Assembly (NCBI GenBank): GCA_017620915.1
Contig: JAFZSK010000096.1
Span: 1,236-65,235, forward strand
Origin: Clostridia bacterium
GTDB taxonomy: Bacteria; Bacillota; Clostridia; UBA1212; UBA1255
Direction: 5' to 3'
Length of the DNA: 64,000 bases
The position numbers and the translations under genes were made by a program. A model generated the notes under the pieces. The model saw only the letters and a list, made by a program, of their open reading frames with translations, had not been told where the DNA came from and did no database searches. The stretch's first letter is position 1; every line of letters starts with the position of its first letter. Below, piece by piece: positions 7,528 to 62,757 of the stretch.

Positions 7528-10500
7528 ATGAAATTGACAATACGCAAAATACTGGCGTTTATGTTGACCGTCGCCATGCTGGTGTCGCTGGTTACTATAA
7601 ACGCGATAGCGGAGACGGAGACGACGCTCATATCCGAGGGTTTTGAAGGCGGCGAACTGCCGGAGGGCTGGACAACAGAGTCGGATACGTCGAACGCCTG
7701 GAAGGTCGGCACCGGTGATTACAGCACATCTACCGGCGCGAATTCTGGAAATTACAATGCATTAATTACACATGGCACGACCGGCACGAGCTCATACCTT
7801 GTTACTCCCGCGATCGACCTGAGCGGAAATACTAAAATGGCGAAACTCAGCTTTTGGTATATCAACCGCGCATGGTATAGCGATATTGACGAGTTCGGTG
7901 TTTACTACCGTGTCGGCGAAGGCGAGTGGCAGGAACTGTTTACGACTAAAGATGCTCATAGTGACTGGACGTCAGAAGCGTTGGCGCTCCCGGCCGCAGC
8001 CAATGCCGCGGGTGTTCAGCTCGGGTTTAAAATGACCGACGGTTATGGCTACGGGGTAGGACTTGACGATGTAGAACTCATTTTAACCGACGCGGTAACC
8101 AGAACTGTTAGTTATGACCCCAACGGAGGCACCGGCACGATGGAGCCCACGACCGGTTATGAAGGATTCACCGTTCAAGTCGCCGGGAACGGCTTCACCC
8201 CGCCGGAGGGCATGAGATTCTGGAAATGGAACACCCAGGCTGACGGTTCCGGGGATGATTACAAAGCGGGCGATTATATTAATCTTACAGGTAATATCAC
8301 CCTCTATGCCCAATGGGCCGATGTTGCAAGTATATTTGAAGATTTTGAAACCGGTGAAATGCCGGAAGGCTGGACCACAGAAACGGAGTCGGCATCTCTT
8401 AACTGGACAGTAGGTACCGGTGATTACTATAGCAGTACCGGTTCACATTCGGGTAATTATAACGCAAAATATAAATCCGGGAACGGTAACGGATACGCTT
8501 CGTGGCTGATCACGCCGGTACTGGATCTGTCAGCAAAAAAATCCGGATCTCTCAGTTTCTGGATGATCAACCGTGCGTATAGCAGTTATGTTGACCATTT
8601 TGGTGTGTACTACCGCATTGACGGCGGAGAATGGGTAGAGCTGTTCTACACTGAAGAAGCGCATGCGAATTGGACGGAGATAAAGCTGTCTCTGCCGGGT
8701 GAGATTTTTGCGGAAGGTGTTGAGATCGGCTTCCTGGCGACGGATGAGTACGGCTACGGCGTGGGACTGGACGATATAGCGCTGATCACTTCCACCAAGC
8801 CGATGGCTGAGGCGGATATGTTCATTGTGACCGTTCCGGAAGGCATGCTGGTTTATGACGGAACGGATTACGCGGCGCAGGTCTCCGTCTCCGTAAAGAG
8901 CGAATACGAGGGACTTGTGGGTACTCCGGTCTTTGAGATCTGGAAAAGCGGCAGCAAGGTCACCGAAGCTGTCGACGCCGGCAATTATATCGTTAAAGTG
9001 ATCGTTCCTGAAAGCGAGTCATACGCGGCGTCGGTATTGACGGATCCCGCGTGGCAGTTCAACGTCGCTTGCAGTGAATACTTCAACAACTTTGACGGAG
9101 AAGATCCGCTGGACGGCTGGACGCTGGTCGACAGTGACGGCGACGGACAAAACTGGTACGTTTACACGCCTAGCTCTGATGCCAATGTGTACTGCCATTC
9201 CGCTCCTTCGGTGCTGACTTCGGCATCCTTCTCCGGCAGCGCACTGGAGCCGGATAACTGGGCGATACTGCCGCCGATCTACATCAAAGACGGTGCTAAG
9301 CTCACTTTCTGGATCAAAGCGCAGGATACGAATTATCCCGAGGACCTGGTGACCGTTTATATAGGCGACAGCGCGGACATCAACCAGATGGTACAGATCG
9401 GCGATGAATATCCGGCTCCGGTCGATTATGAAAAAGTTGAGATCGACCTCAGCGCGTACAAGGACACCATTAAGTTTATTGCCCTGCGCCACAGCGAGTC
9501 GTATGACCTGTTCAGAGTCAACATTGATAATCTTCATGTCGGCACTCATGAACACGGCAATTATACGTACACTGCAGAAGATAATATCATCACCGCGCAC
9601 TGCGGCAACGAAGGCTGCTACCTTCCCGAAGGTATCGATCTGATCCTCAACGCGCCTCCGCTTGACAGCTACAATTACGATGAACCGTATGTGGCCACAT
9701 TGAGCGGATACGACGCGGAGATCTTCCCGGGCGAGGTTGTGATCCTCTATTCCGGCAGAGACGGTACCGAGTATGCCGAGAGCGCGACACCTCCTACGGA
9801 AGTCGGCGATTACACCGTGACCGCGACGGTCTGCGGCGTGACCGCAACGTTGGATTATACTATTGTCAACTATACGATCACCGTCGATGATAATATCGAA
9901 GGCGGCACCGTGACAGTTGACCCTGATCAGGTCCTTTACGGTGATATAATTACTCTGACCGCTACACCTGATCCGGGCTACAAATTTGAGAAATTCCTTG
10001 TATATATCGGGGGCAATACTTCTGCTAACGAATTTACCAGTAACCCCGTTAGTTTGTACTATAACGTTGCATATGACTCGTTTGTCTCTGCGGTGTTTTC
10101 CGAATTGCCCAAGCCCGAGTTCGTCGCCCACAGCCTTGTGCTCAGCGGCCAGATCGGCGTGAAGTTCGGAATGGATCTTTCGGTACTGAGCGAGGAAGAG
10201 ATCGCGGGCAGCTACATGACCTTCACCGTGAATGGCAAGAAGACCGTGGTCAACACCGCGGATGCCGTGATAGAAGACGATAAGTACGTATTTACCTGCT
10301 ACGTCAACTCGCTGCAGATGGCGGAGGACATTGACGCGGTGTTCACGTACAACGACACTCTGACGGTGTCGGACATCTATTCGGTCGACAGCTACATCAT
10401 GGCTGTTCTCCTGGAGGAAGAAAACTACACTCCGGAGACGGTGGCGCTGGTGAGCGCGCTTGCGGACTACGGTCACTACGCGCAGATCTTCCTTACCAAA

Positions 10501-37185: not shown

Positions 37186-39957
37186 CTATGCAGGCCTGCA
37201 GGAAGCGATGATCTCAGGGGTTACTTCGATCCACATCGCCGGTCTGAGACCATATTCTCCGGACTGAGGCATTCCTTCACGGACAATGTTTCCCTCGGTG
37301 TCAACGCAGGGGGAACTTATTATTCCGCCCGTGCCTATGAGCCACCAGTAGTACGTATCTCTGCCGTACGGTTCATTGATGCCGCACGCGGCCGCAAAAG
37401 GAGTCACAGTTGCTTTAAGAAATGTGGGATACAGTTTTTCCGCTTCGCTGACTGAAAGCAGGAAGACGCTGTCGGTGACGCCATAGCCGGATGTCGGCTG
37501 GATCACCGCCCGTTCCGCAGCGGTGAAGGCATGGGACAGGAACAGACTGTTCAGCCAGCGGCGCGGCGCGGATTCTTTCCAGGTGATCGTATCAAATGTA
37601 ACGTTGGAGCTGTATGCCATGGGGAACAAAATATTGCGGCTGACGATGAGCGCTTTGTTCCCCTGCGTTTCCACCACGAGCCACTCGATATCTTCTGCTG
37701 TGGTGAGATCGTTGTCCTGCTCGAACCGGCCTAATTTTATGTAATGATTATTAGGTATTAAAATCGTCGCAGGCAGATCCTCCGCCGCGGCATTGGCAAT
37801 ATCCGCCTGCAGCGTGACTGTATTGCTGACGAAGTCGCGCCCGCCGAAGGTGCACTGGGCCGTAAAACGATTGGATCCTTCAACATACTCCAGCTTGATA
37901 TTTTCCTGAGCGTTATCCCAGAAACCGTCGCCTCTCCACATGTATGTGCCAAACGCGTCAAGGTCGTGGCGGTCGAATTCAGTTCCTCCGCTCCGGTCCG
38001 TATAGAATCTGAGCATCCCGGATGTGATCTGCGCTCCTGTAGCCATGTCCACGATATTAAGTTTGAACTGCTTATAATCGAAAGAATTTACCACCGTCAC
38101 CGCGTACTCAGCGGCACGTCCGCTATTACTGCGATTTGCGCACTCTCTGCCACCCGGGTAAAAAGCGCAGTTGACAGTCTCGCCGTAGTTTGTAACAAAA
38201 TCTGACGTATACTCGTCGTTTTCGACGGCAACGCGGAGATCCAGCTGGTCCTGCGCCTTGATCGTGAACATGGCGATCCCATTTTTGTTGGTATATGAGT
38301 AACCGACCTGTTTCCCGGAAGGTTCGTAGAACAATACTTTAACGCCGGAAATCCTAATTTTGTTATCTTCTCTTTTGCACGCATAGTCCGTCAGCTGAAC
38401 GTAGAATGTAAAGTCGCCGCTGTATGGACTCACACGGAGTGCTTTGCCCCGATATACCGACGTCGGAAGTTCGTCGGGGGTATGACCGTTATACACCAGG
38501 AATCGTACGCGTTCTTTCTGTTGCTCTTCGGTCCAGGAAGAACCTACGGTCAGAGTGTCGGGACGGTACTGCTCGTCCAGCGGTATTTCGTGTTCTGGTT
38601 CGGGTTCGGCCGGAGCGTGCTCTTTGATCACTATGTTGACGGGCGTGAGCTGAACATCATATTCTTCGCAATAAATGATCACCCGAACTACTCCGGGTTT
38701 GAGGCCGGTCAGCATTCCGTTGTTTCGGAGAATGGCGCAGCCGTTGTCTTCCGCCAGTTTATAACGGACTGTACCGTAAGTGAAGTTGTCAGGTGTCACC
38801 ATAAAATCGATCATCATGCTCTCTCCGACCTCGATCGTACCTTTCGGGAGGATCGGCTCGATGCGCTTGATCAGGATCTGGTCAGGGTCGATCGTAGGCG
38901 TGGGCGCCGATGTCGGAGTGGATGTCGGTGTCTTAGTGGGAGCTGATGTGGGCGTTGCTGTCGGTGTCTTAGTAGGAGCTGAAGAGGGCGTTGCCGTCGC
39001 GGTCGGCGCCACAGTCGGAGTCGGGATGGATTCCGGGGTCGTGGTCGGCGGGTCTGCAGTGGCGGAAGAAGCGCCGCCGGCGTAACGGAAACGGAAAACG
39101 CAGTTCCAGCCAAAGCTCTCGGACCGGTCGAATTCCGGATAATACGTGCCGGCTTTGCTGACTTCAACGACTACGAAACACTCGTCCGGTATTACTGCGG
39201 CGTTGGCCGTAATATCGCGTGTCAGAAGCGCGTTCTCGGCAGCAGAAACCTGATCCGTTTTGCCTTGAATGTGTAACGTGTAAATATAATCACCGCTCGT
39301 AGTGTAGATGCTGATTCTTCGAATAGCTGCCCCGGTTCCGGCAACAACAAATCTAAACTTTTCCGGACGCGCGGGGTCAATTCCGTCCACGAGCGGCGCT
39401 TCGGTCAAAAGCGCGGCGAAGTCGAGGGGCACTCCGTCCGCGGACAGGAATCCGCCGGCTTGTTCTGAATAAGTCTCGCTCCATGAAAAGCATTTATATG
39501 GTTCGGTGGAGCGTATGTATTCCAGCGTAAGGAGGGCGTCTTCTGCAGGTGCAGTCGCATCCGGTGTTGCCGTCGCATCCGGCGTTGCCGCCGCATCGGT
39601 CGGATCGTTCGGCAGGTCGGTGTTGTCCGCCGGCATTGCCGTAGGTGTGGCGCTTTGTGAGGTCAGGTCGTCCGTAGCGCTCACGGAGGCTTTTTGCTTG
39701 CCCGCACGGAGCTTAATGGATATGAGCACGCCGGCCACGAAGAAGATGGCAACTGTGGCAAGTACGGCGGCGGCCGTGATCCACGGACGCCAGCCGCGTC
39801 CGTTCGAGCCGGAACCGGAACCCGAAGCGTAGCCTTTACCGGCTGCTGCGGCAGCGGTCTGCTTTTCCGCGGCAGCCTGTGCGGCCGCGGCATTGTATTC
39901 ATCGATGATATCTTTCGGCAGTTTTTTCATGAAAGAGGTGAGGCGGGCTTCGTTCAT
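37186..39957 (-). CDS. anti-sigma-factor-like single-pass membrane protein with large extracytoplasmic region (Pro/Thr linker, Ig-like (Big_2-like) domain, C-terminal DUF6273-like domain)
   Basis: 923 aa. ATGA overlap with the upstream ECF sigma gene. Short cytoplasmic N-terminus, then one TM helix (WITAAAVLATVAIFFVAGVLISI). PT-rich linker (APTKTPTATPTSAPTKTPTSTPTSAPTPT). The C-terminal block (IEWLVVETQGNKALIVSRNIL...WKESAPRRWLN...VFLLSVSEAEKLY...YWWL...GLRPAMWI) resembles DUF6273, from memory. Confidence 0.75.
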   Translation of the reverse strand: MNEARLTSFMKKLPKDIIDEYNAAAAQAAAEKQTAAAAAGKGYASGSGSGSNGRGWRPWITAAAVLATVAIFFVAGVLISIKLRAGKQKASVSATDDLTSQSATPTAMPADNTDLPNDPTDAAATPDATATPDATAPAEDALLTLEYIRSTEPYKCFSWSETYSEQAGGFLSADGVPLDFAALLTEAPLVDGIDPARPEKFRFVVAGTGAAIRRISIYTTSGDYIYTLHIQGKTDQVSAAENALLTRDITANAAVIPDECFVVVEVSKAGTYYPEFDRSESFGWNCVFRFRYAGGASSATADPPTTTPESIPTPTVAPTATATPSSAPTKTPTATPTSAPTKTPTSTPTSAPTPTIDPDQILIKRIEPILPKGTIEVGESMMIDFMVTPDNFTYGTVRYKLAEDNGCAILRNNGMLTGLKPGVVRVIIYCEEYDVQLTPVNIVIKEHAPAEPEPEHEIPLDEQYRPDTLTVGSSWTEEQQKERVRFLVYNGHTPDELPTSVYRGKALRVSPYSGDFTFYVQLTDYACKREDNKIRISGVKVLFYEPSGKQVGYSYTNKNGIAMFTIKAQDQLDLRVAVENDEYTSDFVTNYGETVNCAFYPGGRECANRSNSGRAAEYAVTVVNSFDYKQFKLNIVDMATGAQITSGMLRFYTDRSGGTEFDRHDLDAFGTYMWRGDGFWDNAQENIKLEYVEGSNRFTAQCTFGGRDFVSNTVTLQADIANAAAEDLPATILIPNNHYIKLGRFEQDNDLTTAEDIEWLVVETQGNKALIVSRNILFPMAYSSNVTFDTITWKESAPRRWLNSLFLSHAFTAAERAVIQPTSGYGVTDSVFLLSVSEAEKLYPTFLKATVTPFAAACGINEPYGRDTYYWWLIGTGGIISSPCVDTEGNIVREGMPQSGEYGLRPAMWIEVTPEIIASCRPA
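38927..38998 (-). repeat. in-frame 36-bp tandem duplication encoding the Pro/Thr linker of the anti-sigma-like protein
   Basis: GGTGTCTTAGTGGGAGCTGATGTGGGCGTTGCTGTC (38927-38962) and GGTGTCTTAGTAGGAGCTGAAGAGGGCGTTGCCGTC (38963-38998). Confidence 0.8.
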
Positions 39958-40514
39958 ATTGACGCTCCTTTCTTCTTCAGAAACGATTCAAGACCCTTGC
40001 GGGTGCGGTGGAGGGTTGACATCACGGTGCCTTCCGCTACGTTCAGTTCGGCGGCGATCTCGCTCACCGAGAGCTCGCGGTAGTAGCGGGCAACAAAAAT
40101 CAGCCGCTTTTTCCGGTCGATGCCCCGGAGATATTCGCCGATCATTCCGGCGATCTCTGCGGCGTTTTCCGCGTCGTCCGTGCGGTCCGGCGCGGCGGGT
40201 TCGGTGGCGAGCGCGTCCAGCGGCAGCAGCTCTTCCGGCGGGATGTCCTTCTGCCGGCGGCTCTTGCGGTAACGGTCAATAGCCTGGTTGCGCACGATGC
40301 CAGCCACATACGCGGACAATTTCTCCGGCGCGGCAGGCGGGATGCTGTCCCAGACTTTGAGGTAGGCGTCGTTGACGCATTCGGCGGCGTCGGCTTCGTT
40401 TTTCAGGACGTCAACGGCGACCGCGCGGCAATACTTTCCATACTTCCGCTCGAGCTCCGTTATGGCCTGTTCATCGCGCCGGTCAAACAGCATTATCAGT
40501 TCTTTGTCAGTCAT
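39954..40514 (-). CDS. ECF-type RNA polymerase sigma-70 family factor
   Basis: 186 aa from MTDKELIMLF (ATG 40514), with AGGAGG 9 nt upstream. Region 2 (ERKYGKYCRAVAVDVL.N..DAEECVNDAYLKVW) and region 4 HTH (LSVSEIAAELNVAEGTVMSTLHRTRKGL). Confidence 0.85.
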   Translation of the reverse strand: MTDKELIMLFDRRDEQAITELERKYGKYCRAVAVDVLKNEADAAECVNDAYLKVWDSIPPAAPEKLSAYVAGIVRNQAIDRYRKSRRQKDIPPEELLPLDALATEPAAPDRTDDAENAAEIAGMIGEYLRGIDRKKRLIFVARYYRELSVSEIAAELNVAEGTVMSTLHRTRKGLESFLKKKGASI

Positions 40515-40540
40515 TCGCCGGTACCTCCTGCACCTATACA

Positions 40541-40566
40541 GACGAAATAAAAACGTTGTCCATTCC
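40541..40566 (-). promoter_or_regulatory. candidate ECF-type autoregulated promoter (GGAAT-N17-CGTC)
   Basis: The minus strand reads GGAATGGACAACGTTTTTATTTCGTC. CGTC ends 26 nt before the sigma-factor ATG. This resembles the GGAAC-N16/17-CGT consensus of many ECF groups. Confidence 0.35.
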
Positions 40567-40591
40567 AATTATATCACTTTTTTTGTATAAT
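40563..40591 (+). promoter_or_regulatory. candidate sigma-70 promoter for the divergent 120-aa ORF
   Basis: TTCCAA (40563-40568), a 17-nt spacer, then TATAAT (40586-40591). Its -35 overlaps the putative ECF -35 on the other strand. Confidence 0.4.
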
Positions 40592-40632
40592 TGTCCCGGC
40601 AGCTGCGCTGCGGCGAAAGGAGTGCTGAAAAT

Positions 40633-40995
40633 ATGCGGATCGATGGGGAGGGTTATTCGTTTGAACTGCCGGACAACTGGAACGGTATCGTCGGTGTGTC
40701 CCGCATCCGGGGCGGTGTGACGCTCAGGCTTTTGTGGGAGGATGGCCGGACGCACAGCAGCGTGCTGGCAACTTTTAAAGCGGTGAAGCGTCCCGCGGCA
40801 GTGAAAGGGGACAACGAGCGCATCGGTATTCTGACGTACCCCTCGGGTGAGTCGCGAACGCTGGTGGCGGTATACGGCCGCGAAGGCGCGTGCAGCGAAG
40901 AAAACGCTGATCTCTACTGGCGACTGTTCGACAAATTATATTTTGTATATAAAAGCATCCGGCCCGCAGGAGGATACTCCTGGCAGATGTTTTAA
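40633..40995 (+). CDS. hypothetical cytoplasmic protein (120 aa)
   Basis: ATG at 40633 with AAAGGAG 10 nt upstream. The tracked TTG start at 40591 falls inside the predicted -10. No signal peptide and no recognised motif. Confidence 0.5.
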   Translation: MRIDGEGYSFELPDNWNGIVGVSRIRGGVTLRLLWEDGRTHSSVLATFKAVKRPAAVKGDNERIGILTYPSGESRTLVAVYGREGACSEENADLYWRLFDKLYFVYKSIRPAGGYSWQMF

Positions 40996-41041
40996 ACATT
41001 ATGACATTATATATGGTTTCGGCCTACACTATGCCTTGCTG

Positions 41042-41262
41042 CGGAGGCCGCAATTCCTTCTTTTGTCAATTGTGGCCTCCCGAACGAGAAGAATCGGAGG
41101 CCGCAATTCCTTCTTTTTTCAATTGTGGCCTCCTGAACGAGAAAAATCGGAGGCCGCAATTCCTTCTTTCGCCAATTGTGGCCTCCCGAACGAGAAGAAT
41201 CGGAGGCCGCAATTTATTCTATTCTCAATTGTGGCCTCCCAAACGAGAAAAAGCGGAGGCCG
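41042..41262. repeat. tandem array, 53-bp period, 4 full copies plus 1 truncated copy of a 13-bp-stem hairpin unit
   Basis: The unit is GGAGGCCGCAATT, a 12-nt loop, AATTGTGGCCTCC, then a 15-nt spacer. Copies start at 41043, 41096, 41149 and 41202, with a truncated GGAGGCCG at 41255. The stems are identical in all copies, while loops and spacers diverge slightly. Confidence 0.9.
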
Positions 41263-41294
41263 AAAAGAACGAATAAAGCGATTTCGTCCTACGT

Positions 41295-41324
41295 ATCATA
41301 TTGCTCACAAAGCAGCCGAATCAA
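41295..41324 (-). promoter_or_regulatory. possible minus-strand promoter pointing into the hairpin array
   Basis: The minus strand reads TTGATT (41319-41324), an 18-nt spacer, then TATGAT (41295-41300). There is no CDS downstream on that strand before the array. Confidence 0.3.
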
Positions 41325-41420
41325 AAGTGAAATGAAAAGTGAGAAAATGCGAGAAAATGCGAAAAACAAAGAGAAAATCAAAGAAACAGAGATATATTTC
41401 AATTTTAACGCAAAAAGTGC

Positions 41421-41449
41421 TTGACAGCGGGCGGCGGAAGGAGTAGAAT
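41421..41449 (+). promoter_or_regulatory. sigma-70-type promoter for rplM-rpsI
   Basis: TTGACA (41421-41426), a 17-nt spacer, then TAGAAT (41444-41449). Preceded by about 100 nt of A/purine-rich sequence (UP-element-like). Confidence 0.65.
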
Positions 41450-41504
41450 GTGCCGCGTTCGCCGCCGAAAGCGGGGAAATGTTAATCAGGAGGAATACCA
41501 AGCT

Positions 41505-41942
41505 ATGGGTACATATTCAGCTAAAGCCGCGGATGTTGATGCGGCGAAGAAGAAATGGTACGTGATCGATGCCGAAGGAAAGACCCTGGGAAGATTGGCC
41601 ACAGTCGTTGCCACCCTGCTCACGGGCAAGAATAAACCCGAATTTACGCCGAATCAGGACACCGGAGATTTCGTTATTGTCCTCAACGCGGATAAAGTCG
41701 TGCTTACCGGCAAGAAATACACCGACAAACTTTACCGTCACCACACCGGTTACGCCGGCGGCCTGAAGGAAGTCAACTACAAAGAAATGGTCAAGCGTCA
41801 CCCCACTTATCCGGTAGAAGCGGCCGTTCGCGGCATGCTCCCGAAGAACGCGCTGGGACGCCAGATGTTCAGAAAACTCAAGGTCTACGCAGGCGCGGAG
41901 CACGAGCATCAGGCTCAGAAGCCCGAAACGTACGAGCTGTAA
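41505..41942 (+). CDS. rplM: 50S ribosomal protein L13
   Basis: 145 aa from [66 protein letters not shown]. Confidence 0.97.
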
Positions 41943-51884: not shown

Positions 51885-51910
51885 TGTAGATCTGACTTAA
51901 CACAAAAAAA

Positions 51911-51941
51911 CGCCCCGGCCGGCCGAAACAGCACCGGGGCG
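51911..51941. terminator. bidirectional rho-independent terminator between htpG and the convergent lipoprotein gene
   Basis: Stem CGCCCCGG (51911-51918) / CCGGGGCG (51934-51941), flanked by AAAAAAA upstream and CTTATTTAT downstream. Confidence 0.75.
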
Positions 51942-51955
51942 CTTATTTATGCCCA

Positions 51956-54268
51956 CTATTTATTTTCAATAAGCAAGCCCAGCGCGCAGCGCACGGCGGT
52001 GAATACTTCTTCGTCGGTGGTGTATTGACCCAGCGACGTGGTGATCTGCTTGATGATCAATTCCAGTTTCTCAGAGCCGTAAAGCTGCTCAAACAGCGTA
52101 AGATACTCGAAATCCTCGATACCGTCGCGGATGCACTCGAGCCGCAGCGAACCGACCGGCTCCTCCACACCGATATAATGGCCCGAATAGACCAGCACGC
52201 CGTTGCCGTATATGTCGTAGGGAGTTGCCCCCGTCGCCACCTCGTGCTTTGAATTCCAGCCGAAATCCGGATTGCCCTTGGCGTCAGTGGAAGGATACCA
52301 GTCATTTACCAGGTAGTACAGGAAATTGTCCACATTATATAACTTCTGCTGCCAGAACAGGATCCGGCAGCGCACCGCCTGAGTCTCGATGGAGATGGTG
52401 ATCTCCGGAGACTGGGGGTACCGTGTTACATACCACCAGACGTCGTCGCCTTCGGCCTGTTGCTTCGCCATGCGCTCCGGGAAGGTCCCCAGCTGTTTCT
52501 CGATGGCGCTTCCGACGCGGTAGGTGAGAGTCGGATCCCGCCGGAAATCGTCAAGTGTGTTGTAGAAGAACGTGTGCGGACACCAGGAATTCACGTATTC
52601 GCTCACGTATTCAAAGAAGTCGGTCTTGCTTTCCGGGTCCAGGGCCATGTCGTAGTGCATCGGGACAATATAGTGATACCCGGGGAAGTAGGTGGCAAAC
52701 AATTCGCCCTCGGAATTGACCTGGTTGAGTGCCTCCATAGACAGGGGCTCGTCAACGTGATAGAAGTAGGCTTTGTTCAGCCATTCCGGGTTCTGGGACA
52801 AATAATTATACGCCGACTTGACGTTCTCTGCCGTGGGGTCAACTTTCCATCCCAGCGGGTTGAAAGCCACAACTCGCGGATTCGCCACATATTCCTGCAG
52901 GATCGGGTCTTCATACGCGCCGCCGTCGCTGTAGGGGAGAGTGTACGCGCACACCCGGTTCTCCAGCAGAAGGTCGTAATACTTTCTGTACATCACACCT
53001 TCGTCGCCCTCGTACAGCTCGTGGTTCACGTACACCGCCCACCAGGACAGATCCATCTGGGTCTTGCATGTGGTCGCCTCCGGGAGCGCGAAATCGTACA
53101 CGTACGCGTAAACTTTCGCTTTCTTCAGTTCGCGTCCTTCGGCGTCAATTATTGTGAGCTCGGCGGTATAATCTCCGGCGGTGCTTGATTCTTCGGTGAA
53201 CAATTTGATGATGAACAGCTGGCTCCGGTCCGCCTTAAGCGAGAACGGCGCGTCCAGCCGGGGTATCGGGTCAACGATAGATTTACCCTGCACGTCGTCG
53301 AAATAACTGCCGTAGTAGAGTTCGGTGCGAAGCGTTTCTCCTTTGGAGTTCGCGAAATCAGTGATCCGGGCGGTCAGCCCCTCCCGGTCCGTTTGGGACG
53401 CCAGCAGGAACTGGCAGTCTTCGATCTCGTTTTTAGCCAGGTACATCTTATATGTGTTGCGGCCGGTAGACGCGGTGGACTCGGCGGGAGTTTTGGTATA
53501 TGTGTGGTCAAACCACAGTTCCAGCGTACTGTCTTCATTGGCCGCGGTCAATTTCGTATTGTCCGGCCCGGTCAACGCCACGGTCTTCAGCAACGCTTCT
53601 GCTTCTTTCTGCTGCTTGTTCGTGAGCAGGTGCGGATCCGGCTCGCTGTGTGCTTTCATGAAGTCGGCCACATCTGCCGAGTCCTTCAGAAACGTCAACG
53701 ACGCTATATGCACCTTTTCGCCGCCCTGCAGTGCCGTACGCATAAAGTCGAAGCGAAAACCGTGCACCGTGCCGGAGAAATCTTCGCCGGACAGGTCGAA
53801 GATAAGATATTGCCAGCCGCTCTCAGTGTTGTCAAACAGCGCCACCCGGCTGTGTCCCGCCTGCGCACCGGCAACCGCGCCCGCCGCGAAGAACAGTTCA
53901 AACTCCGAATTCGTGCATTTTTCCTGCTTCAGCTTCAGTACGATGTATTTGTAGTCGTCGCCGGATACCGGTTCGAAACCCAGCGAACGCACATATTCCT
54001 CATACGCGAACCAGATGAACGGATCCTCCGTAGCGTCGGTGGTCTCCAGCACTACGGTATGGCCCTCTTTGCGGTCCTTTCCGGCGTACGCCTTGCAGCC
54101 GTTCGGGCCGGTGAAGTATTTGACGATCTGCTCGCCGTCCGCGTGGACTTTGTCCGGCGACGTGGTCTTGCCGCCGCGGCACGCGGTCAATGCCGCCGCC
54201 ATTGCGATCACCAGCGTCAATACCGCCGCGATCAATATTCTCGTTGTCGATCTGCTTCGCCTGTACAT
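51956..54268 (-). CDS. DUF4091-like (GH123-related) putative glycoside-hydrolase lipoprotein
   Basis: 770 aa. Signal peptide with lipobox (AAALTAC). The C-terminal region (YGNGVLVYSG...VGSLRLECIRDGIEDFEYL) matches my recollection of DUF4091. The family call is from memory. Confidence 0.7.
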   Translation of the reverse strand: MYRRSRSTTRILIAAVLTLVIAMAAALTACRGGKTTSPDKVHADGEQIVKYFTGPNGCKAYAGKDRKEGHTVVLETTDATEDPFIWFAYEEYVRSLGFEPVSGDDYKYIVLKLKQEKCTNSEFELFFAAGAVAGAQAGHSRVALFDNTESGWQYLIFDLSGEDFSGTVHGFRFDFMRTALQGGEKVHIASLTFLKDSADVADFMKAHSEPDPHLLTNKQQKEAEALLKTVALTGPDNTKLTAANEDSTLELWFDHTYTKTPAESTASTGRNTYKMYLAKNEIEDCQFLLASQTDREGLTARITDFANSKGETLRTELYYGSYFDDVQGKSIVDPIPRLDAPFSLKADRSQLFIIKLFTEESSTAGDYTAELTIIDAEGRELKKAKVYAYVYDFALPEATTCKTQMDLSWWAVYVNHELYEGDEGVMYRKYYDLLLENRVCAYTLPYSDGGAYEDPILQEYVANPRVVAFNPLGWKVDPTAENVKSAYNYLSQNPEWLNKAYFYHVDEPLSMEALNQVNSEGELFATYFPGYHYIVPMHYDMALDPESKTDFFEYVSEYVNSWCPHTFFYNTLDDFRRDPTLTYRVGSAIEKQLGTFPERMAKQQAEGDDVWWYVTRYPQSPEITISIETQAVRCRILFWQQKLYNVDNFLYYLVNDWYPSTDAKGNPDFGWNSKHEVATGATPYDIYGNGVLVYSGHYIGVEEPVGSLRLECIRDGIEDFEYLTLFEQLYGSEKLELIIKQITTSLGQYTTDEEVFTAVRCALGLLIENK

Positions 54269-54335: not shown

Positions 54336-54340
54336 ATTTC

Positions 54341-54398
54341 AGTTTTAAGTTATAAGTTTTAAGTTTTAAGTTATGGTTTTAAGTTTTAAGTTTTAAGT
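54341..54398. repeat. heptanucleotide tandem array (about 8 units AGTTTTA / AGTTATA)
   Basis: AGTTTTA AGTTATA AGTTTTA AGTTTTA AGTTATG GTTTTA AGTTTTA AGTTTTA AGTGG. It directly abuts the -35 of the minus-strand promoter. Confidence 0.9.
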
Positions 54399-54607: not shown

Positions 54608-55924
54608 TTGCTGATCACAGAAACTATGCAGGATATTACAGACAAATACACAAGCAAAGAATACAAACTGTCCCGCCGCGCGTACATTACCGAATGCATG
54701 TTCGAGTATCTGGTGGCGCTGCTGGTGGCCGATGCGTTTATCGCGAAGCTGCTCAAGTATCTCGGCGCGAGCGATGCGCTGTGCGGCGTGATCTCATCGC
54801 TGATCTCATTGTCGTTCCTGTTTCAGATCTTCTCGGTCCTGGTAATGGGCCGGATCCGCAATATGAAAAAGACCGCGATCATTTTTCACGCGGCAGCGCA
54901 GTTTTTGTTTTCCTGCCTGTATCTGATACCGTTTCTGCGGGCGGACAACGGGGCGCGGCGCGGCATATTCATTGCCTGCATATTGTGCGCATATTTCGGC
55001 AACTACTTCGTGACCACGCTGATATACAAGTGGGGCAATACGTTCGTTGACCCCCACCGGCGCGCCAGCTTTTCTTCGCTGAAAGAGATGGTATCGCTGT
55101 TCACCGGCATGATCGTTTCGCTGGCGCTCGGCTACGCCATCGATCAGATGGACAAAAGCGGCGATCTGACGCGCGGCTTTCTGCTGTCGTCAATATGCAT
55201 GTTCATTTTCTGCGCCGCCGACCTGATCTGCCTGCTCCTGATCAAAAACGACAAAAAGACCGAAACGGAAACAGTGCCGCCGCCGAAACTGTCCGAGATC
55301 ATGCGCAATACTTTCGGGAACCGCAACTACGTCAAAACCGTTATCCTCAAATGCCTGTGGTGGGGCGGAGTCTACACTACGATCGGCTTCCTGGGCACAT
55401 ACAAGCAGGAGGAGCTGTTTTACACCCTGGCGCAGATACAGATAATAAACATAATCGCCTGCGGCTGCCGGTTCGCGATCTCGAAGCTGTTCGGCCGGTT
55501 CTCGGACAAGCACGGTTTCGTGCGCGGCATCCAGCTGGCGCTTACTATTCTCGCTGCCGCGTTTACGGTCAACATGTTCACGGCGCCGAACACCCGGTGG
55601 CTGATCATCGTTTTCGTCGTGCTGTACAACATCAGCCAGGCCGGCACGTATCAGAACATGATCAATATAACATACGCGTTTGTTGACGTCAGGTATTTCG
55701 TGCAGGCCGCCGCGCTGAAGGACTGCATTGCCGGTGTGTTCGGCTTTCTGTGCGCGCTCGGCTCGGGCAGGCTGCTGGCCGCGATACAGGCAAACGGCAA
55801 TAAACTGTTCGGCATTCCGGTATACGCGCAGCAGGTGCAGTCGGCAATATCGCTGCTGTTCGTCATTGCCGCGTTCCTGTTCGCGCAGTTTGCGCTGTCG
55901 CACGAGAAAACGATGCTGCAATAA
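54608..55924 (+). CDS. MFS-type transporter (12-TM)
   Basis: 438 aa, with about 12 hydrophobic helices in a 6+6 arrangement and a central charged loop (IKNDKKTETETVPPPK). TTG start at 54608 with GGGAAAG upstream. An alternative ATG at 54626 lacks an RBS. Substrate unknown. Confidence 0.75.
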   Translation: MLITETMQDITDKYTSKEYKLSRRAYITECMFEYLVALLVADAFIAKLLKYLGASDALCGVISSLISLSFLFQIFSVLVMGRIRNMKKTAIIFHAAAQFLFSCLYLIPFLRADNGARRGIFIACILCAYFGNYFVTTLIYKWGNTFVDPHRRASFSSLKEMVSLFTGMIVSLALGYAIDQMDKSGDLTRGFLLSSICMFIFCAADLICLLLIKNDKKTETETVPPPKLSEIMRNTFGNRNYVKTVILKCLWWGGVYTTIGFLGTYKQEELFYTLAQIQIINIIACGCRFAISKLFGRFSDKHGFVRGIQLALTILAAAFTVNMFTAPNTRWLIIVFVVLYNISQAGTYQNMINITYAFVDVRYFVQAAALKDCIAGVFGFLCALGSGRLLAAIQANGNKLFGIPVYAQQVQSAISLLFVIAAFLFAQFALSHEKTMLQ

Positions 55925-55926
55925 AA

Positions 55927-56003
55927 AAGTGATAAGTTATAAGTGATAAGTTATAAGTTATAACTCGGAACTTGAAACTTAAAACTTGAAACTTATCACT
56001 TGA
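55927..56003. repeat. 11 in-phase heptamers forming an imperfect 77-nt palindrome (5x AAGTKAT, centre AACTCGG, 5x AACTTRA-like)
   Basis: AAGTGAT AAGTTAT AAGTGAT AAGTTAT AAGTTAT AACTCGG AACTTGA AACTTAA AACTTGA AACTTAT CACTTGA. The outer 12 nt pair perfectly (AAGTGATAAGTT / AACTTATCACTT). It starts 3 nt after the MFS stop codon. Confidence 0.9.
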
Positions 56004-56063
56004 AATTTGCCCCTGTTTTGTGTTACATTGACAGCCGAATAATACTGAGTGGAGAGCGTGTTC

Positions 56064-57584: not shown

Positions 57585-59315
57585 ATGAACACGCACCGCA
57601 AAGTCAGTTTCAAAGCCGTACTCACCGTAGTTGCCGTCGTGCTGGCGGCGGCGGTCGTCGCCGCGCCGTGGCTGATCCACGCAGTGGCAGGGGACAACAC
57701 AAACGCCGGTGAAGACACCCTCACCGAAAAACGCGAGCTCGCCGAATTCCCGAAAGAGTTTTCCAATGACTGGTTTGCCCGCGTCGAATCGTATTTCACC
57801 GACCATTCACCGGCGCGAAACCGTCTGATCGGGCTCAAGACCGCGACGGCGCTTAAGTATGACGGCTTTTACCGCAAAAACGTGAGTCCGGTGCTGACCA
57901 ATATCGTCATCGGCAAACAGAAGCCGCAGAACGCTCAGCAGCCGGATCCGGACAATTCCGCCGGGCCGGAGGCTACCGTCGACATCGGGTTGATAATTGG
58001 TTTCGACACTCCGCGGCCTACAGAATCGCCCGCAGAAACGCCGGTAATTACCGACGCACCGACACCGACGCCTACTCCCGAATTGACCGACGCACCCACG
58101 CCCACTCCGACGCCGGAATTGACTGCCACGCCGGAGCTCACGGCCACGCCGGGTGCGACATTGCCGCCGGACGCGACCGCGGAGGCTCCGATCGTCACTG
58201 CCACACCCACGCCGGTACCGACCGCCACCCCGACGCCGAAACCTACGCCCACGCCCACGCCGAAACCCACCGCTACGCCCGCGCCGACGCCTACGCCCCA
58301 TGTGCATAACTTTACGGTGGTCAGATCCAGTACCGCGGATCTGGACAACTACGGCTACACGCTGAAGCGCTGCGCTTCCTGCGGAGAGTATTCATTGACG
58401 GATTATGTACCGAAATTGATCGATGACTCGTACCTGGCACCGGAATACGCCGGCGGCGCGATATACGGCAAGCGCGACTGGCTGTTCTACAGCGGCGACA
58501 GTTCGGAGGCGTACTATCGGGGCACGAACCTGTTGACCAGTGAAGAGATGGCTTCCTGGAGAGCCGCATTTGAAGCGCTGGATGAAGTCTGCAGGTCGAA
58601 GGGCATTGACCTTGTGATCATGGCGGCGCCGAACAAAGAGCAGATGTACCCGGAATATATGCCGAACTATAAGGTGGAGACGCAGAACAAACGGCAGGAC
58701 GTGTTTCTGAATTATATGCAGGGCAGCAGCGTGCGTTATGTCTACCCGAAGGCGGAACTGACGACAACTAAGATCTTCTACGATGTTTTCTATAAGCAGG
58801 ATACCCACTGGAACGGCCTGGGCGGCTTTACGGGGGCAATGGCGATCTACCGCGCGCTGGGCCTTCAGACTACCAACGTGTTTGAACTGGATGTGACAGA
58901 AAAGACGCGCGAAGGCGGCGACCTGTCCAACTTCAGCGGGTATAAGACAACGTACCGCGACTGGTCGTACTCGTACAAGCCCGGGATCACGACTACGGTG
59001 GAATACTTCGAGAATCATGTGACGTCGTCAAATACCGAATTGTCTCAGTTCCATGCCGACGGTGCGCTGTACGCAGACAAAAAGATCGTGGTGCTGGGCG
59101 ACTCGTTCCGGCACGGGTTGACCGCGGTGCTGAGCAAAGATTTCGGCAGATCCACGTTTGCGCACCGCAAGGAAATGGACTATCAGACGCCGGTGGTGAT
59201 GGAGGCGCTCGCGGAACTCGGACCGGGCGACGTACTCGTGCTGATGGCGGTGGAACGGTACGACGGACAACTGCCCGGCGCCGCGGATACGCTGCGGGCG
59301 ATCCTGCAAAACTGA
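57585..59315 (+). CDS. AlgJ/AlgX-like (DHHW-family, SGNH-like) protein, partner of the MBOAT acyltransferase
   Basis: 576 aa. N-terminal TM anchor, Pro/Thr-rich linker, a Cys pair (CASCGE), then KQDTHWN (the DxHW motif) and VVLGDSF. Gene order and motifs match the AlgI-AlgJ / PatA-PatB type of O-acetylation pair. Confidence 0.75.
   Translation: MNTHRKVSFKAVLTVVAVVLAAAVVAAPWLIHAVAGDNTNAGEDTLTEKRELAEFPKEFSNDWFARVESYFTDHSPARNRLIGLKTATALKYDGFYRKNVSPVLTNIVIGKQKPQNAQQPDPDNSAGPEATVDIGLIIGFDTPRPTESPAETPVITDAPTPTPTPELTDAPTPTPTPELTATPELTATPGATLPPDATAEAPIVTATPTPVPTATPTPKPTPTPTPKPTATPAPTPTPHVHNFTVVRSSTADLDNYGYTLKRCASCGEYSLTDYVPKLIDDSYLAPEYAGGAIYGKRDWLFYSGDSSEAYYRGTNLLTSEEMASWRAAFEALDEVCRSKGIDLVIMAAPNKEQMYPEYMPNYKVETQNKRQDVFLNYMQGSSVRYVYPKAELTTTKIFYDVFYKQDTHWNGLGGFTGAMAIYRALGLQTTNVFELDVTEKTREGGDLSNFSGYKTTYRDWSYSYKPGITTTVEYFENHVTSSNTELSQFHADGALYADKKIVVLGDSFRHGLTAVLSKDFGRSTFAHRKEMDYQTPVVMEALAELGPGDVLVLMAVERYDGQLPGAADTLRAILQN
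58053..58124 (+). repeat. in-frame 36-bp tandem duplication (DAPTPTPTPELT x2) in the Pro/Thr linker
   Basis: GACGCACCGACACCGACGCCTACTCCCGAATTGACC (58053-58088) and GACGCACCCACGCCCACTCCGACGCCGGAATTGACT (58089-58124). Confidence 0.85.
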
Positions 59316-61119: not shown

Positions 61120-62757
61120 TCAGCTGGCCATTGCCTCCAGTCCGGAGATGTAGGAAGCGGCTTCGTGAGTAGCCAGCATGCCGGTGTAGGAGTTGTTCGG
61201 GTCGGGGGTGCGTCCTAACTGAGCCAGTGCCAGTTCCCAGCCTACGTCGGTCGCAATGTCTTTTAACGGAGCCAGGTCGCTTCGGGAAGAGATGCTGAGG
61301 ATCATCTGGACGAGTTCGTTGTCCATGATATTGGTCGTGCTGGCACCGGGCATAAACGCGGAGGCCACCGCCTGATTCATCAATTCGTACACGGTCATGC
61401 CGTCTTCCGAGAGCCCGGCTCCCTTAAGCGAATGGCGGTCATTGTAGTACGACGAGACGCTGGTGCATATCTCGGACAACCGCTGCTCGGTCTTGGTCAG
61501 CAGTTTGTTAAGGCCGGAGGCAGCATTGATGACAACGTCGTTGCCCGGACGGTAGAAGCCCATGGAACGCAGGGGGACAACGGTCACGAGATCGGCGCTG
61601 TTGACCACGTTGAATATATTGGCGGTGTAGTACGCGGGCACCTGGATGCTGTTGTCCGCGGGAGTGTGCAGCGTCAACGACGGCGCGATGGGGTAGATAT
61701 AATTCAGCGCGGTGCTGCGGGCGTCGTTGTACAGGAGGCCCAGCAGGTTTGCCACTGAACCGCCGCGGGAGTGGCCGCAGATCAGCAGCAGCGCGTCGGG
61801 GTCCTTGGAGATCGTAGACTTGGTGGCGTTGAAGATCTCATCCGCCGCGGCTTTGAAGTTCTCGGCATAGAGCGTATTGTCGGAGTGAGAGGGGGCAATA
61901 TCCACGTTGGAATACCATTCGCCGCCAACAGTGTGCAGTATCAGTATCACATACACGGTGCGGGTCTGACCGCCCATATCGATATAGCCTTTCGCGAAGG
62001 TGTACGCGGAAGTGTGAGACCGGTCGCTGGAATCTTTGCCGTAATGATTCTGGCCCAGCACAGTGAAGTTGTGGCTTTCCGTAGCGGCTTTGACCTCGGC
62101 CGCGGTCTCACCGGCACTGCTCATTTTAAGCAGCTCGAGCGCCAGCTTCGCGCTGAATTCGGTGCTGCTGGCGGGGATCGTCAGCCCTGTGATCTTGCGC
62201 ACGTTGGGGTCTTCCGTAGGCGCGGGAGTTTTAGTCGGAGCCGGAGTCTTGGTAGGTGCCGGCGTCGGAGTTTTGGTAGGTGCGGGAGTGGGCGTTTTGG
62301 TGGGCGCCGGAGTAGGTGTCTTAGTCGGGGCCGGCGTGGGCGCAGCGGTGGCAGCGGGCGTATCGGTAGGCGCAGCGGTCGGTCCTTCCGTCGGAGCCGG
62401 CGTAGATTCTTCGGTGGGGACAGCGGTCGGCTCGTTCGTGATCACAGGCGCATCTGTTAAGACCGGCGCGTCAGTTACGACCGGCGCGTCAGTTACGACC
62501 GGTGCGTCGGTGACCACGGGCGCCTCGGTCACGACCGGATCGCCGCTGGCATCCGGTGCATCGGTGACCACGGGCTCATTTGTATTGACCGGTTCGTCCG
62601 TGGGGGCGATCACCACATCATCGGTTTTGTCCGGCGTGTTCGGCGGATCCTTGACGCCGCAGGCCGCCGCGCAGAGCAGCAGCGCAAGCACGAGCAGCAG
62701 TACGCCGGCAGCTTTGATATTGAAAAGTTTATGCAGTCTGAACGATATTTTTTTCAT
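61120..62757 (-). CDS. secreted class-3-lipase-like alpha/beta hydrolase lipoprotein
   Basis: 545 aa. Signal peptide with lipobox (LLCAAAC). Long repetitive linker (APVVTD repeats, then PTPAPTKT repeats). Nucleophile elbow GHSRGG (GxSxG) in the LLICGHSRGGSVANLLG context. Confidence 0.75.
   Translation of the reverse strand: MKKISFRLHKLFNIKAAGVLLLVLALLLCAAACGVKDPPNTPDKTDDVVIAPTDEPVNTNEPVVTDAPDASGDPVVTEAPVVTDAPVVTDAPVVTDAPVLTDAPVITNEPTAVPTEESTPAPTEGPTAAPTDTPAATAAPTPAPTKTPTPAPTKTPTPAPTKTPTPAPTKTPAPTKTPAPTEDPNVRKITGLTIPASSTEFSAKLALELLKMSSAGETAAEVKAATESHNFTVLGQNHYGKDSSDRSHTSAYTFAKGYIDMGGQTRTVYVILILHTVGGEWYSNVDIAPSHSDNTLYAENFKAAADEIFNATKSTISKDPDALLLICGHSRGGSVANLLGLLYNDARSTALNYIYPIAPSLTLHTPADNSIQVPAYYTANIFNVVNSADLVTVVPLRSMGFYRPGNDVVINAASGLNKLLTKTEQRLSEICTSVSSYYNDRHSLKGAGLSEDGMTVYELMNQAVASAFMPGASTTNIMDNELVQMILSISSRSDLAPLKDIATDVGWELALAQLGRTPDPNNSYTGMLATHEAASYISGLEAMAS
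62225..62338 (-). repeat. in-frame 24-bp tandem repeats encoding (PTPAPTKT)n
   Basis: 24-bp units at 62243, 62267, 62291 and 62315, plus a partial unit from 62225. They share the GGTGTCTTAGT core with the linker repeat at 38927-38998. Confidence 0.85.
62456..62545 (-). repeat. in-frame 18-bp tandem repeats encoding (APVVTD)n
   Basis: Five units: GTTAAGACCGGCGCGTCA, GTTACGACCGGCGCGTCA, GTTACGACCGGTGCGTCG, GTGACCACGGGCGCCTCG, GTCACGACCGGATCGCCG. Confidence 0.85.

Follow-up and report, generated by a model that had tools for sequence, protein, structure and literature searches.

A tandem hairpin array upstream of rplM as a probable locus of an interspersed, REP-like palindrome family of uncultured rumen Clostridia

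The analysis of the 64-kb window (the whole stretch of DNA studied here) revealed a tandem array of hairpins in the intergenic region upstream of rplM. This array is probably one locus of a lineage-specific, REP-like family of interspersed palindromic repeats, amplified in tandem in a VNTR-like manner, in uncultured rumen Clostridia. It is not a dedicated RNA gene, and it reveals no new regulatory RNA and no new mechanism.

Tandem Repeats Finder placed the array, to which no strand is assigned as a whole, at 41042-41262, with a period of 53, 4.2 copies, 89% matches and a score of 358, by far the strongest tandem array of the window. Each 53-bp unit is built of a 38-nt hairpin (stem of 13 bp, loop of 12 nt) and a linker of 15 nt, and the copies are arranged head-to-tail. 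The four hairpin units start at positions 41043, 41096, 41149 and 41202. Their arms, GGAGGCCGCAATT and AATTGTGGCCTCC, are identical in all four, and their loops differ (CCTTCTTTTGTC, CCTTCTTTTTTC, CCTTCTTTCGCC and TATTCTATTCTC). On the plus strand the loops are composed of pyrimidines and the linkers of purines. The exact period, the identical stems and the drifting loops had all been described in a first-pass annotation of this DNA, and both Tandem Repeats Finder and the sequence itself confirmed them. The statement that the unit is found nowhere else in the window also held. With up to two mismatches allowed, the arm motif has 10 matches in 64 kb against 2.5 expected; eight of the ten are the arms of the array, and the unit is thus unique within the window.

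Folding of a single window hairpin gave -20.1 kcal/mol for the plus-strand RNA, with 12 Watson-Crick pairs and one G.U pair, and -18.0 kcal/mol for the minus-strand RNA, which has an A.C mismatch in place of the G.U. These are the pairings that had been read from the letters alone. The 301-nt array region folded far better than its shuffled versions on both strands (z = -6.9 and -5.9). Because the arms alternate in the order A, A', A, A', each of them can also pair with its other neighbour; this alternative pairing across the 15-nt purine linker gave -21.0 kcal/mol.

Two other kinds of repeat were considered. An ORF spanning 41001-41276 shifts its frame in each unit; the 53-bp period is not a multiple of three and the array is therefore not coding. 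A CRISPR array was excluded, as the segments corresponding to the 'loop' and the 'linker' are both conserved between units and between loci.

The array is preceded by a 120-aa ORF on the plus strand (40633-40995), which has no Pfam domain and is conserved in relatives; the distance from its stop codon to the array is 47 nt. Further upstream, on the minus strand, are genes for a ROK kinase, a 923-aa DUF6273 protein and an ECF-type sigma factor. On the other side, beyond the repeat, an A-rich block (41319-41392, plus strand) is followed by the rplM promoter, which a consensus scan located at 41421-41449 on the plus strand (TTGACA-17-TAGAAT, a near-consensus match at 11 of 12 positions). The rplM gene starts at 41505, and the gene order is rplM-rpsI-tsaE. 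The contig belongs to assemblies of ruminant-gut metagenomes; proteins of the L13 cluster bear the NCBI name 'Clostridia bacterium', and the presence of spoVS beside one related copy of the repeat is consistent with an origin in Firmicutes.

To describe the occurrence of the module outside the window, a degenerate pattern covering the arms of two stem types, A and B (the window units are of B type), was run on metagenome contigs and on GTDB representatives. The pattern was found at 40 loci in the metagenome contigs. Fourteen of these are clear family members, all from WGS project JAEEGL/JAEEGF, a ruminant-gut metagenome, and they carry either single hairpins or 53-bp arrays of two to five units. 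Three family arrays are present on one 30.8-kb contig. One of the fourteen, L079, is the syntenic rplM locus with 95% identity over 4.5 kb; the other 13 have the repeat alone in common with the window. Tetranucleotide z-score profiles of the fourteen loci correlated with that of the window at r = 0.57-0.90. For comparison, pieces of the window gave r = 0.74-0.84 with the rest of it, and the other loci, comprising pattern matches in unrelated organisms and a few short or distant homologue contigs, gave -0.16 to 0.60. These correlations indicate that the copies at the fourteen loci belong to the same organism or to very close relatives.

Gene positions around the copies were obtained with a codon-usage gene caller that recovers the known genes of the window. 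All 18 family clusters proved to be intergenic, several of them less than 100 nt from the 3' end of a gene and a few in divergent promoter regions. The flanking genes are unrelated, housekeeping genes among them, and include those for an FtsQ-like protein, pyruvate:ferredoxin oxidoreductase (POR), a solute-binding protein, RelB, SpoVS, a cytidylyltransferase and F5/8-type C-domain proteins. A generic dispersed repeat had been named beforehand as the observation that would speak against an RNA gene, and such dispersal, over at least 13 other intergenic sites, is what was found. The density of the family is modest, with a single locus over the 64 kb of the window and no locus within the 20-kb flanks of the loci of a sister species described below. 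Among the GTDB representatives, with one genome per species, 24 single pattern matches were found in unrelated phyla, where by our own estimate about 20 would be expected by chance (17 fixed and five two-fold positions, nine gap lengths and approximately 1.2e12 positions); the source species is absent, masked or motif-free in that set, and the scan is silent on copy number. Viral contigs gave one unrelated match only and thus no link to phages.

No transposase domain was detected among 20 genes flanking family copies, and no transposase of any other kind was seen next to a copy or in about 0.4 Mb of related DNA. A motif scan of the window and related loci, about 0.4 Mb in total, detected no HUH/Y1-like ORF of the RAYT kind, and phmmer searches with RayT and IS608 TnpA queries found no homologues in the same 0.4 Mb. 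A marginal transposase match at 51896-52249 of the window is antisense to a real 770-aa gene and was rejected.

Alignment of 42 distinct units, gap-free over 53 columns, defined the anatomy of the family. The module contains a 38-nt imperfect hairpin with arms G(G/T)AGGCC...GGCCT(A/C)C and a loop of 12-14 nt. We refer to the strand on which the loop is purine-rich and ends in GAAGG as forward; for the window units this is the minus strand. The hairpin is followed by a tail, or linker, of about 15 nt, pyrimidine/U-rich on the forward strand. Since single copies carry the tail too, hairpin and tail together make up the module. Conservation is found in the GGCC-core arms and at the 3' end of the loop, the forward-strand GAAGGA being better conserved than any other loop segment of the family; the tail is conserved more loosely. 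The possibility of a loop-tail pseudoknot was also examined. The longest complement between the purine loop and the pyrimidine tail averages 4.24 nt, against 4.15 nt with swapped and 3.93 nt with shuffled tails; this complementarity is not above that due to composition and the pseudoknot was rejected.

Across the 42 units 91.7% of the cells in the 12-pair stem are paired. Covariation had been suggested as a check and was detected at two stem pairs only, 2-37 (G-C to U-A) and 9-30 (A-U to C-G); both changes separate subtypes, so that few independent events are involved. Two mismatches are also kept. At position 8, 16 B-type units from six loci have A.C on the forward strand and G.T on the reverse, and at position 2, 14 A-type units, those with GGAG...CTAC, have G.A. 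The first four nucleotides of the window units, GGAG, pair with CTCC. GTAG is found in the A and D types, on one strand or on both, and its pairing partner there is CTAC or CTCC. As read from the alignment, this pattern fits maintenance of a palindrome together with descent from master copies, and it does not discriminate selection at the RNA level from selection at the DNA level.

The same contigs contain other hairpin arrays with 54-bp architecture and different arms, namely an E-type array at 7975-8222 of L045 and a GTGGCTGAC-type array at 826-1187 of L054. The period of 53-54 bp recurs in at least six stem types (A, B, C, D, E and the GTGGCTGAC type), which have one architecture in common, a hairpin of about 38 nt with a linker of about 15 nt and head-to-tail arrays throughout, and a GAAGGAATT loop-stem junction is common to several of them. 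A period of this length corresponds to about five helical turns.

We compared the rplM-upstream site in contigs encoding either an identical L13 protein or close homologues of the upstream 120-aa ORF. L004, L040 and L079 have five 53-bp units of A type, in which GTAGGCCGAAAT, a purine loop and ATTTCGGCCTAC are followed by a pyrimidine linker. L039 carries six 54-bp units of C type (GGGCCACAA...TTGTGGCCC). A single A-type hairpin is present in L009, which may be either a real allele or an assembly collapse. A sister species, with 73% identity in the upstream ORF, has units of D type (GTAGCCGCAAAT...AATTGCGGCTAC), one, two or five in number and again with a 53-bp period. Repeats of 23 bp and 32 bp, also varying in number, adjoin the D-type units there. 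In the nearer relatives L082-L085 the whole island, comprising the genes for the DUF6273 protein and the sigma factor, the ORF and the array, is missing and rplM directly follows the ROK gene. More distant relatives (L096-L110) have a P-type ATPase gene upstream of rplM and no hairpin. Copy-number variation, which had been proposed as a check, was thus evident: the number of units at this site is (possibly) 1, 4.2, 5 or 6 in the species of the window and 1, 2 or 5 in the sister species. The rplM-upstream intergenic site is hypervariable between strains in stem type, copy number and orientation of the units.

The A-rich block and the rplM promoter are conserved in all compared relatives, those lacking a hairpin included. 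The array hence falls outside the control region of rplM, which can do without it, and the A-rich block marks the true left edge of that region. We infer that any effect of the array on the host is incidental and that the array is unneeded for rplM expression. Some local selection is conceivable, as two species retain a family hairpin at this site. In practical terms, the array could be used as a strain-typing (VNTR) marker. It also explains the breaks of short-read MAG assemblies upstream of rplM: short-read contigs L002, L007 and L009 end in the array or start near it.

The orientation of the window array deserves separate description. A strand-specific family profile (nhmmer) matched all four window units, each of B type, on the minus strand with E-values from 1e-11 to 1e-16: unit 1 at 41043-41080 (E = 1.2e-11), unit 2 at 41096-41133 (E = 1e-16), unit 3 at 41149-41186 (E = 2e-16) and unit 4, the loop of which is the most diverged of the four, at 41202-41239 (E = 1.6e-13). 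On the minus strand unit 2 is followed by GAUUCUUCUCGU and unit 3 by GAUUUUUCUCGU. The same profile matched remnants on both flanks on the plus strand. The left remnant (41016-41042), found both by alignment and by nhmmer, is of A type and consists of a 3' arm, GTTTCGGCCTAC, with the pyrimidine linker ACTATGCCTTGCTGC; it aligns, in the L004 allele, with the terminal part of the first unit, and its profile match covers model positions 28-51 (41017-41040). On the right is a degenerate A-type hairpin of 38 nt, GGAGGCCGAAA...ATTTCGTCCTAC, at 41255-41292 (E = 9e-4 for the match 41255-41294). It folds at only -5.4 kcal/mol and is orthologous to the last unit of the L004/L079 allele. What had been taken for a truncated fifth copy at 41255 is in fact the 5' arm of this hairpin.

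When the core of the array was compared with the L004 array, its minus strand aligned over 212 columns at 68% and its plus strand over 14 nt only. With the B-type array of the unrelated L061 locus, by contrast, the plus strand of the core has 87% identity over 197 nt. The A type occupies the rplM site (L079) in the JAEEGL population, in which the B type is found at L061. These comparisons point to the window array being a replacement by ectopic recombination. On the simplest reading, an older A-type array may have lost its inner units in the window strain to a B-type segment similar to the L061 array, inserted in inverted orientation, and the two junctions would lie within the common GGAGGCCG core.

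A history of the family can be proposed on this basis. Modules would reach new sites by copying, through either a structure-specific HUH/RAYT-like nuclease or recombination. After arrival they would be amplified locally by slipped-strand or unequal recombination, and whole array segments could be swapped between loci via the common GGCC-core arms. Each unit would, when transcribed, fold into a hairpin with an energy of -18 to -20 kcal/mol. To the plus-strand transcript of the upstream ORF the array would only contribute stable 3' hairpins. For leftward (antisense) transcription it may act as a stack of intrinsic-terminator-like blocks, made of minus-strand hairpins with U-rich tails.

That last property might be regarded as the reason for the existence of the array, i.e. 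a terminator or insulator stack selected by the host as a barrier between the strong rplM promoter and the upstream ORF (or antisense transcription), the family having spread as a portable terminator. The location of several clusters within 100 nt downstream of a gene end agrees with this, as do the U-rich forward tails of B-type units (e.g. GCUUUUUCUC and UUUUUUUCUA), the presence of a family hairpin at the rplM site in two species and the three arrays located just upstream of promoters (in the window, at 13459 of L054 and upstream of spoVS in L067). However, many A- and D-type tails are not U-rich, and relative to a gene ending within 100 nt five clusters are forward and four reverse. At the rplM site itself the orientation differs between strains, the copy number ranges from 0 to 6, and relatives keep the same conserved promoter block without any hairpin. 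In the window, three of the four minus-strand hairpins have five or six U residues among the 10 nt that follow them, as against none or one on the plus strand. The terminator-like polarity is therefore on the minus strand and not on the strand of the upstream ORF, and a role as terminator, or as the insulator suggested in the first-pass annotation, is possible as a side effect. A consensus terminator scanner called none of the window hairpins, since their 12-nt loops are longer than those of typical terminators. Because orientation varies between strains at the rplM site and across loci, any terminator-like effect would be incidental, and we consider a host-selected terminator stack to be unlikely.

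We also assign little probability to readings in which the architecture common to the stem types reflects either dedicated structure-specific machinery that copies and phases the modules, such as a non-RAYT HUH nuclease or a hairpin- or cruciform-binding protein, or an RNA-level role of the GAAGG loops in many 3' UTRs. If either were true, the repeat would be more than passive REP-like junk.

The array could alternatively encode a dedicated structured RNA with multiple hairpins, for example a protein sponge of the Csr/Rsm type, transcribed from a minus-strand promoter and exposing GGA-like motifs at its loop edges. This option had been raised at the outset, and a promoter-like sequence pointing into the array, TTGATT-18-TATGAT, is indeed present on the minus strand at 41324-41295 (feature 41295-41324), where the consensus scan gave a weak match at 9 of 12 positions. 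Its -10 region is not conserved in other alleles, and the site is for that reason probably a chance match. The expected loop motif was also found in part. On the minus strand three of the four loops end in GAAGG, within the loop segment best conserved in the family, and the U-rich tracts mentioned above follow the hairpins; but the next A is the first base of the stem, so that the GGA bridges the boundary between loop and stem and is not contained in the loop. Rfam had been suggested as a further check and gave no family for the array: there was no match on either strand of the whole window at the gathering threshold, and only noise (E > 4) around the array at E <= 10, with no Csr/Rsm family among the matches. 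A search for a CsrA-like ORF in the window and related loci, which represent part of the genome, was negative; this is a weak test. Finally, the same module is present at at least 13 unrelated intergenic sites in both orientations, and other strains have at the rplM site an array of opposite orientation, different stems or no array at all. A dedicated sRNA is thus very improbable.

It is equally hard to credit that the array is a set of double-stranded DNA sites for a nucleoid-associated protein or regulator, placed on one face of the helix by the period of about five turns: this period does recur in at least six stem types, but common descent of the module can explain its constancy as well, the arm sequences differ between types with hairpin potential being what is kept, many copies are single units, and no candidate binding protein is linked to any locus.

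We therefore return to the REP-like repeat family and compare it with known systems. REPs are intergenic imperfect palindromes of 20-40 nt, with compensatory changes distinguishing their sub-families. A mismatch in the stem is conserved, and the units are found singly, in pairs or in clusters, sometimes 'reiterated in tandem' (PMC3733652, PMC3333891). Transposition or recombination followed by local amplification has been proposed for their dynamics (PMC3733652, PMC3333891). The Clostridia family shares with REPs a 20-40-nt imperfect palindrome found between genes, often just downstream of them and in either orientation, compensatory stem changes between sub-families, a conserved non-complementary stem position, an occurrence as single or clustered units and arrays that vary between strains. 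Its head, G(G/T)AGGCC, resembles the E. coli REP head GTAGGCCG.

There are also differences. In GTAG REPs a conserved unpaired GTAG tag (or GYAG/GTRG) is present at the 5' foot of the stem (PMC3733652, PMC3333891), whereas the corresponding tetranucleotide of the window units is GGAG, which is paired, and there is no unpaired tag. Head-to-tail arrangement has been described as rare for GTAG REPs (PMC3733652), and the term 'Firmicutes' is not mentioned in the main texts of either PMC3733652 or PMC3333891. Unlike those of REPs, the loops of the Clostridia family are long (12-14 nt) with a conserved GAAGG, and the 15-nt tail is a part of the unit. REP-like families have been documented mostly in Proteobacteria, and E. 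coli has roughly 600 REP copies; the density of the Clostridia family is apparently much lower than this. The host belongs to Clostridia. RAYT-associated REPs flank a cognate Y1/HUH transposase gene (REPtron); in the case of the Clostridia family no RAYT was found in about 0.4 Mb comprising the window and related loci.

The array resembles E. coli BIME-2 and REPINs in that a palindromic unit with short conserved linkers is amplified in tandem to a strain-variable number, in agreement with 'spread then local amplification'. BIMEs and REPINs are, however, composed of two REPs in inverse orientation, and the window family has single hairpins arranged head-to-tail. Of the REP/BIME-like element array proposed in the first-pass annotation, the REP-like part, which is the least exotic of the options raised there, is supported by the dispersal of the module, and the inverted pairs of a BIME are absent.

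Csr/Rsm sponges (CsrB, RsmY/Z) likewise have consecutive hairpins and, on one strand, a purine motif with GGA close to the loop. Unlike them, the window array does not constitute one conserved gene and lacks a conserved promoter, and its orientation and presence vary between strains.

As in interspersed minisatellites (VNTR/MIRU-like), several loci are occupied, copy number is polymorphic and arrays of two to five units exist elsewhere. The MIRUs of mycobacterial VNTR loci and pneumococcal BOX elements with tandem boxB are intergenic units of about 45-55 bp, present at tens of loci with polymorphic copy number. The window family is similarly intergenic, dispersed, tandem and strain-polymorphic in copy number, but MIRUs do not form palindromic hairpins, BOX elements have a modular A-B-C structure, and neither is related to it in sequence.

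Overall, the closest known kind is the REP family, and the findings do not place the Clostridia repeat among the RAYT-associated GTAG REPs. A family in rumen Clostridia that combines head-to-tail amplification with apparent swapping of whole arrays between loci provides a data point on the evolution of REP-like repeats.

The three-gene block at 37186-40995 of the window, which encodes a 923-aa DUF6273 protein, an ECF-type sigma factor and a domain-less 120-aa ORF, constitutes one variable island together with the hairpin site. In the close relatives L082-L085 a ROK gene is followed directly by rplM without the island, and in further relatives a P-type ATPase occupies this position. The intergenic region upstream of rplM is also a hot spot of tandem repetition in general. 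In the sister-species allele (L086) the same region carries a 23-bp tandem repeat (TGGGTAAATG..., 9457-9563) and a 32-bp tandem repeat (CGCCGCGTAGCGCAGGAAGTTGTGTTGACACC, 9629-9759). Both arrays adjoin the hairpin, and their copy number differs among strains.

Upstream of the rplM -35 element lies an A-rich block (window 41319-41392; GAAATGAAAAGTGAGAAAATG(C/A)GAGAAA...AATCAAAGAAAC), which is conserved nearly base for base in all relatives examined, even where the upstream gene is different. This block may represent a UP-element-like or regulatory region. The rplM 5′ leader (41450-41500) contains a small conserved hairpin, GTTCGCCGCC-GAAA-GCGGGGAA, located just 5′ of the Shine-Dalgarno sequence. 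Of the ribosomal-protein-leader families in Rfam, none scored above threshold.

Analysis of the window revealed a TTTTAAG heptamer repeated about nine times at 54337-54398, with AATGGCAAAT on its 5′ side and AAGTGG on its 3′ side. These positions share a composite, (AATGGCAAA)n + (GTTTTAA)n + GTGG, with 6285-6345 of L061, an unrelated metagenome locus, where it directly adjoins the B-type hairpin array. Since the composite is present both in the window and at this unrelated locus, it is a second dispersed intergenic repeat family of the lineage, besides the hairpins. Two other heptamer arrays, (AAGTTAT)n followed by (AACTTGA)n, were observed at 55927-56009, immediately 3′ of the stop codon of an ORF for a 438-aa membrane protein (54608-55924); their mutual orientation is roughly inverted.

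Imperfect tandem repeats were also found at 38900-38999, 58038-58298 and 62216-62538, with periods of 18-48 bp, every one of which is a multiple of 3. These are probably repetitive protein segments, and overlap with an ORF was seen for the first of them, which falls inside the coordinates of the 923-aa ORF (37186-39957).

Further hairpin arrays with a period of 54 bp are present in L054 (826-1187; arms GTGGCTGAC...GTCAGCCAC), in the contig L045 with E-type hairpins (7975-8222; GACCGCAAT...ATTGCGGTC) and in L039, an allele of the rplM site with a C-type array (478-800; GGGCCACAA...TTGTGGCCC). The arms of the three arrays differ, yet all three have the architecture of the window's hairpin array, and the period is constant across types.
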